DNA of 64,000 bases, taken from assembly GCF_003334335.1 (NCBI RefSeq), contig NZ_QOWQ01000002.1; one strand, written 5' to 3'. Both the position numbers and the translations under genes were made by a program. Shown one piece after another: positions 54,188 through 54,506 of the stretch. The notes under the pieces were generated by a model. That model was not told where the DNA came from and did not search any database. It was given only the letters and a program-made list of their open reading frames with translations. Positions within the stretch are counted from its first letter, which is position 1. Each line of letters opens with the position of its first letter. This stretch comes from Escherichia coli (GTDB lineage Bacteria > Pseudomonadota > Gammaproteobacteria > Enterobacterales > Enterobacteriaceae).

Positions 54188-54506
54188 AGTAGTCTCCTGA
54201 GGTTTTATTAGAATCATTATGTTTGAGCGTAGCGTTGGTAACGCTACCAGGCGCGTGAATGTTACCCCATTTTATGTATGGACATGTAGTGAAAACTACA
54301 ACCTTGTCGTTCGCTTTGGCATCATTTTCATTATAAAGACGGAATTTTGCATCAGCTTCTCATCAAGAAAAACAACTAAAAAATCAATCACAATACTTGT
54401 GCATTTCTTTAAACAGTTTTTAAAAACTGACTCCGGGTATGGAGCTATGGGTATTTTCTGTACCCAATGCTTTTAACAGCAATTAATTTCATAGGATGAA
54501 AGCTCA

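Follow-up and report, generated by a model that had tools for sequence, protein, structure and literature searches.

A palindrome in the divergent narP-yejO spacer of Escherichia coli as a putative stem-loop of the narP leader

On balance, the perfect palindrome located in the divergent spacer between narP and yejO appears to act as an RNA stem-loop in the narP leader and not as a DNA operator, a reading that we hold with modest confidence and that draws on published transcript ends, folding models and the comparison of related genera. The palindrome would be an ordinary feature of an already-studied leader, the function of the hairpin being putative. The neighbouring heptamer TACCCCA, which resembles the NarL/NarP consensus, is best read, from its sequence context, as part of the proximal narP core promoter. 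All positions given below refer to the window, i.e. the whole stretch of 64,000 nucleotides that was analysed.

The divergent spacer and the narP start points

The start codons of narP (ATG at 54187) and yejO (ATG at 54507) were separated by a spacer of 319 bp (54188-54506), exactly as described in the earlier note (Table 1). The region 54180-54520 was 100% identical to that of E. coli K-12 MG1655, so that the published narP data transfer base for base, with the K-12 position equal to 2,290,500 + (54187 - window position). The yejO gene was intact in the window (863 aa), the K-12 copy being split by IS5. A mechanical ORF of 85 codons (54219-54476, plus strand) extended across most of the spacer and is probably spurious. 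In the ccmH-narP intergenic region (53359-53465), beside the narP terminator hairpin, weak Rfam matches to naRNA4, ES036 and Ysr224 were obtained, none of which reached its gathering threshold; they resemble REP-type repeats.

Table 1. Coordinates of the features of the narP-yejO region in the window.
Feature	Position	Strand	Details and basis
narP coding sequence	53540-54187	-	215 aa + stop codon
RprA pairing region	54184-54222	-	leader nt 116-154 (-35 to +4); PMC9262595, mapped through K-12 identity
A-rich single-stranded tract AAACAUAAUGAUUCUAAUAAAA	54203-54224	-	between hairpin and Shine-Dalgarno; sequence, folding
Extended helix	54227-54252	-	outer G-C pairs 54252-54227 and 54251-54228; 3-nt bulge CUG (54250-54248); minimum-free-energy structures
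RNA stem-loop	54229-54247	-	GUAGCGUU (54247-54240), loop ACC (54239-54237), AACGCUAC (54236-54229)
Conserved promoter block AGTTTTCACTACATGTCCATACATAAAATGGGGTAACAT, proposed ancestral proximal promoter P2	54259-54297	-	conservation
TACCCCA	54263-54269	+	TGGGGTA on the narP strand, directly after TAAAAT
TAAAAT, candidate -10 hexamer of P2	54269-54274	-	relaxed scan; predicted start ~54262-54265
yejO islet (yejO + flanks)	54298-57151 (approximate bounds)		between proL and narP, by comparison with yejO-less genomes
Candidate distal promoter P1	54343-54371	-	TTTTCT (54371-54366), 17 bp, TGcAAAATT (54351-54343); relaxed scan
yejO, intact autotransporter gene	54507-57098	+	863 aa
tRNA-Pro proL	57201-57277	-	

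Two 5' ends have been used for the narP leader, namely a 150-nt leader beginning at "the most distal" dRNA-seq start site (Brosse et al. 2022, PMC9262595) and the 78-nt leader of Hao et al. 2016, as quoted in PMC9262595. They mapped to positions 54337 and 54265, respectively. The mapping was verified at two points: the CUCA mutated in narPmut2 (leader nt 137-140) fell at 54201-54198, and nt 45-48 of RprA, taken from the K-12 rprA gene, were UGAG, in agreement with the publication. An unrestricted RNAduplex prediction of RprA against the leader returned a meaningless long-loop duplex, and only the coordinate check was retained.

Concerning the promoters, a strict sigma-70 scan of 53300-54700 found none, and a relaxed scan was needed to obtain the candidates P1 and P2. 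The start predicted for P1 (~54336) lay next to the published distal start (-150; 54337), and that predicted for P2 (~54262-54265) included the 5' end of the 78-nt leader (54265). The block assigned to P2 was kept in Escherichia, Citrobacter and Salmonella, and partly in Trabulsiella, with unrelated DNA upstream of it; based on this conservation, the ~40-bp block is proposed to be the ancestral narP promoter.

The surroundings of this block differed according to the presence of yejO. One E. coli strain without yejO and one Citrobacter genome had the tRNA-Pro(GGG) gene in the orientation of narP, ~185-210 bp upstream of it. Homology between the window and the yejO-less genomes covered the tRNA terminator up to ~57152 and resumed at ~54297-54312, and this break identifies yejO and its flanks as an insertion. 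The inserted yejO DNA contained P1, the distal start (54337) and the initial ~40 nt of the 150-nt leader, these ~40 nt being the region reported to mediate a second, indirect control by RprA. The ~110 bp containing both motifs, for their part, always travelled with narP, in E. coli strains as well as in genera without yejO, which bears out the part of the earlier proposal that saw in the motifs a mark of the narP control region. As E. coli strains without yejO keep the hairpin, it belongs to narP.

The predicted hairpin within the narP leader

The palindrome consisted of GTAGCGTT-GGT-AACGCTAC, with perfect 8-bp arms (54229-54236 and 54240-54247) around a 3-nt centre. The earlier note had recognised both motifs, but its coordinates needed correction (54228-54246 for the palindrome and 54262-54268 for TACCCCA, instead of 54229-54247 and 54263-54269), as did the gap between them, which was of 15 bp and not 16 bp. 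The distance to the narP ATG was close to the ~40-80 bp that it had given (42-60 bp for the palindrome, 76-82 bp for the heptamer). Its placement upstream of the narP start holds for the start codon only, both motifs being located in the transcript or at its beginning.

Two perfect inverted repeats (arms ≥8 bp, loop ≤10 nt) were present in the spacer, compared to a mean of 0.11 per dinucleotide shuffle, with 8% of the shuffles containing at least one. The palindrome was thus modestly unusual relative to shuffled sequences, and the heptamer count was not. The second repeat, a perfect 16-bp palindrome (CAGTTTTTAAAAACTG, 54414-54429), was situated in the half of the spacer nearer to yejO.

Whichever of the two reported start points is used, the palindrome is transcribed into the narP leader, at nt 91-109 of the 150-nt form and nt 19-37 of the 78-nt form, and is predicted to form there a stable stem-loop of eight pairs closed by a 3-nt loop, to which two outer G-C pairs would be added. 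The isolated hairpin had a folding energy of -10.5 kcal/mol, with a modest z-score (about -1.9 to -2.3) and with 11 of 200 shuffles being as stable. When the 150-, 78- and 65-nt leaders, each with 45 nt of coding sequence, were submitted to partition-function folding, seven of the eight pairs reached probabilities of 0.97-1.0, the exception being the loop-closing pair (0.67). The palindrome is thus located within the transcript, on the transcribed strand, and its predicted fold is stable and dominant in the ensemble, with a modest margin over shuffles. The whole 180-nt leader was not unusually structured (z = -0.58), and the covariance models of Rfam 15 gave no match in 54188-54506 at E values up to 1. 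A role as intrinsic terminator or attenuator was rejected, as the hairpin is followed by GCUCAAACAUAAUG, with no U-tract, and is not listed by the terminator scan.

The DNA is that of the E. coli narP leader already studied for its control by RprA, SdsN137 and Hfq (Brosse et al. 2022, PMC9262595; Hao et al. 2016), the spacer being 100% identical to K-12. These studies defined two regions, the first 50 nt of the long leader and nt 116-154; the palindrome is located between them and the heptamer at the 5' end of the 78-nt leader. The terms 'hairpin' and 'stem-loop' are absent from the text of PMC9262595, the main paper on the narP leader, which differs from the present description in mentioning no hairpin at nt 91-109 and no mutation aimed at it.

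The 3' end of the hairpin (54229) was 6 nt upstream of the RprA pairing region, which begins at 54222 and includes the Shine-Dalgarno sequence AGGAG (54198-54194). The A-rich tract had a mean unpaired probability of 0.57-0.72 in the partition-function folds, and mutation of its AAN motifs, close to the ribosome-binding region, abolished repression by Hfq (PMC9262595). The pairing of SdsN137 and a possible direct effect of Hfq are likewise placed at the ribosome-binding region by the literature. In addition, within 54170-54200, the Shine-Dalgarno region (UCAGG) was predicted to pair with narP codons 2-3 (CCUGA), leaving its first three bases with an unpaired probability of just 0.1-0.2.

The most likely effect of the hairpin on expression, as we infer it from these models, would be structural, the stem-loop isolating the landing pad of the sRNAs and Hfq, together with the ribosome-binding site, from the upstream leader. 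It may also hinder 5'-to-3' scanning or attack by RNase E. The outcome would be a tuning of the translation or stability of the narP mRNA. Structured leaders with an adjacent Hfq (AAN) site offer a parallel, such as that involved in the direct repression of mutS by Hfq (an analogy cited in PMC9262595). The narP stem-loop similarly adjoins an A-rich single-stranded tract and a ribosome-binding site controlled by Hfq and sRNAs, but a dependence of Hfq binding on the narP hairpin, or its remodelling by Hfq, is only hypothetical.

Leader stem-loops in related genera

A search for NarP with one genome per species returned 80 loci, among which the exact palindrome was restricted to Escherichia. Three blocks were common to the upstream regions of Escherichia, Citrobacter, Salmonella and Trabulsiella: the promoter block, a stem-loop region, and the AACAATAATGA...CTCAGGAG ribosome-binding region. 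At the place of the palindrome, Citrobacter and Salmonella possessed a 46-nt stem-loop with an outer stem CAGCGC/GCGCTG, folded by most single sequences, a much larger loop, and a conserved apical AAUC-UGGAC-GAUU missing in E. coli. In an ungapped alignment of 16 of these sequences, 79.8% of cells were paired, compared to 26-35% with the partner columns slid; four pairs had changed on both sides, and the shuffle control on the percentage paired was not significant (140/500). As RNAalifold gave no consensus structure for either the 27-sequence or the 16-sequence alignment, pair counts were taken on a pre-specified structure.

A covariance model of the Citrobacter/Salmonella stem-loop (R1) matched Intestinirhabdus (28 bits) and, weakly, Trabulsiella; the E. 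coli hairpin was not detected by R1, even with the speed filters off. The possibility that the palindrome is the ancestral outer stem without its apical part was dropped, as R1 failed to link the two. The stem-loop of Citrobacter, Salmonella and Intestinirhabdus resembles that of E. coli in its location, downstream of the proximal promoter block and upstream of the AACAATAATGA/Shine-Dalgarno region, and in its G+C-rich stem of the form xAGCG...CGCTx, and differs from it in its length (46 nt), in its apical motif and in the failure of R1 to match the E. coli sequence. A stem-loop thus appears to recur at this leader position, the E. coli version being, as judged from sequence comparison, a positional analogue and not a demonstrable homologue. 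The occurrence at the same place of stem-loops differing in sequence and loop length fits an RNA structure better than the dyad operator of one conserved regulator. The apical GGA loop of Citrobacter and Salmonella (loci L004-L025, ~100-55 nt upstream of narP; e.g. L024:1102-1147) and the Shine-Dalgarno GGA resemble a putative CsrA-type pair of sites; Escherichia is devoid of the apical, GGA-containing part of the narP leader stem-loop.

Within E. coli, the leader was found at an identity of at least 95% in 5424 of 5426 complete genomes, and conservation of the stem carries little information given that the leader is nearly invariant across these 5424 genomes. Eight Escherichia sequences showed changes in the loop (ACC to TCC or AAC) and in the 5' bulge, the arms being unchanged except for the outermost base in E. 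albertii; no compensatory change of the stem was found among them. This pattern is compatible with a hairpin without discriminating in its favour. Variants centred on the loop would be tolerated by a dyad operator too, which counts against a hairpin-specific reading.

It is also conceivable, if rather unlikely, that the palindrome is functionless, having arisen as a side effect when the ancestral stem-loop of Escherichia was replaced through a local rearrangement, and that it persists through a general constraint on the short leader. The tandem CGCTA-CGCTC on its 3' side, the lack of homology to the ancestral element according to the covariance model, the modest fold and inverted-repeat statistics and the absence of informative stem substitutions are in line with such an origin. 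It is harder to reconcile with the fact that several genera maintain a stem-loop at this location although its sequence has turned over, and with a hairpin that is predicted to form almost always and that adjoins a known regulatory site.

The two motifs as candidate protein-binding sites

The heptamer TACCCCA matched the TACYYMT consensus at six of seven positions, as the earlier note had counted, and it overlapped the last base of the candidate -10 hexamer of P2 as well as the P2 start point, an overlap that depends on the proposed promoter assignment. It would represent the -10/start-point segment (TAAAAT-GGGG-TA) of the conserved proximal narP promoter and no independent element. The GGTA core of the heptamer was invariant in the 27-sequence alignment.

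The suggestion that the heptamer is a NarL/NarP site was not supported by the consensus scan. With one mismatch allowed and both strands considered, five TACYYMT matches were found in the spacer compared to 4.8 expected, and 54% of shuffles reached five. The only exact heptamer in the spacer was TACCCAT, on the yejO side (54447-54453, minus strand). It is contained in an everted heptamer pair, ATGGGTA-N7-TACCCAA (54447-54467), and the same segment, ~40 nt ahead of the yejO ATG, was also scored on the plus strand as a hairpin of terminator type followed by a T-rich tail. In the E. coli narP promoter, the best 7-2-7 pair (TACATAA-AA-TGGGGTA, 54278-54263) scored 11/14, with three mismatches, a class occurring at background frequency (35 such sites in the window compared to 28 expected). 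The 7-8-7 arrangement conserved in relatives also had three mismatches in E. coli and was at background (36 in the window compared to ~28 expected). As a positive control, the known NarP/NarL 7-2-7 site at -44.5 of napF (TACCCCGATCGGGGTA, 41061-41076, upstream of napF at 41190) scored 12/14, with two mismatches, a level reached by only two sites in the window. The 11-mer ACAGGTTTTAC, which runs into the first three bases of this napF site, is found again where the Citrobacter narP promoter block begins.

That 43-bp block reads ACAGGTTTTAC-TACTACT-TACCCAT-N8-TGGGGTA-AAAT in Citrobacter and contains 4-5 near-consensus heptamers, a number rarely attained by shuffles in several species (P = 0.000-0.017), and some Citrobacter orthologues possess a 12/14 7-2-7 pair, TACTTAC-CC-ATGCGTA. 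The heptamer-rich Citrobacter sequences are related and represent two or three independent lineages only. Escherichia, Trabulsiella and most Salmonella-like sequences showed no such enrichment: the block of E. coli had one near-match compared to 1.04 expected, and that of Trabulsiella 0-2 compared to 0.8-1.4 expected. Promoter function confounds the conservation of GGTA.

It is improbable, from the sequences compared, that TACCCCA and its degenerate partners TGTCCAT and TACATAA constitute a weak NarL/NarP operator over the proximal promoter, through which narP would be auto- or cross-regulated in response to nitrate. The overlap with the -10/start region of P2, a place from which repression could be exerted, the invariant GGTA core, the Citrobacter blocks with their 4-5 heptamers and occasional 12/14 pair, and the closeness of TACCCCA to the napF half-site TACCCCG would all agree with such an operator, and an effect of NarL on narP expression is stated, citing Darwin & Stewart 1995, in a comparative genomics study, which is a secondary source here (PMC1805755). 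The same study predicted NarP autoregulation in Vibrionaceae only, with no sites upstream of Yersinia narP. A literature search for NarL/NarP ChIP-exo data returned nothing on the narP promoter, and PMC9436347 and PMC3519889 provided no further information on narP regulation. In a Salmonella narP::lacZ study, no change was observed, under conditions that included neither nitrate nor a NarL comparison.

Several properties of the locus argue against the operator. The heptamer count is at chance both in the E. coli block and in the whole spacer, and the best 7-2-7 and 7-8-7 pairs belong to the background class. A 7-2-7 heptamer pair is said, in work from 1997 by Darwin and co-workers, to be required by NarP and preferred by NarL, which is regarded as established knowledge; TACCCCA has no convincing partner, its best 7-2-7 pair remaining at 11/14 compared to 12/14 for napF, and the partner conserved in relatives is 8 bp away, not 2. 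Promoter function accounts equally well for the conservation of GGGGTA, the block persists in Trabulsiella in the absence of heptamers, and the Citrobacter evidence comes from related sequences. A weak NarL/NarP operator in the block appears more credible for Citrobacter than for E. coli, where reading TACCCCA as a piece of the proximal core promoter is preferred.

A wider scenario, in which narP control was rewired in Escherichia through decay to TACCCCA of an ancestral NarL/NarP heptamer cluster still seen as 4-5 heptamers in Citrobacter, replacement of the GGA-loop stem-loop by the short palindrome, and acquisition from the yejO islet of a distal promoter together with the initial ~40 nt of the long leader, would be quite doubtful.

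Finally, the proposal that the palindrome is the DNA operator of some dimeric regulator, possibly Escherichia-specific and acting as a roadblock at +91 (from P1) or +19 (from P2), is very improbable, for although the perfect 8-bp dyad is of a kind produced by just 8% of shuffles, has been kept by 5424 of the 5426 E. coli genomes and varies in its central 3 bp as an operator would tolerate, it is found within the leader transcript, well beyond the two start points and 3' of both reported 5' ends, its sequence and spacing are not conserved outside Escherichia, where the Citrobacter/Salmonella stem-loop differs in sequence and loop, and its retention is common to the whole leader and not specific to the palindrome. 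We know of no regulator consensus, among those of IscR (type 2), ArcA, FNR, LacI-type proteins, RcsB and EvgA, that fits the palindrome or the conserved block.

None of these results would surprise a specialist, and no open question depends on them. The location of the distal start site of the published fusions in yejO-insertion DNA should be kept in mind before K-12 results are applied to other strains or to Salmonella. The hairpin itself offers a simple target for compensatory mutagenesis and, if it shapes the translation or decay of narP, would add a small structural piece to a leader controlled by RprA, SdsN137 and Hfq in nitrate/nitrite respiration.
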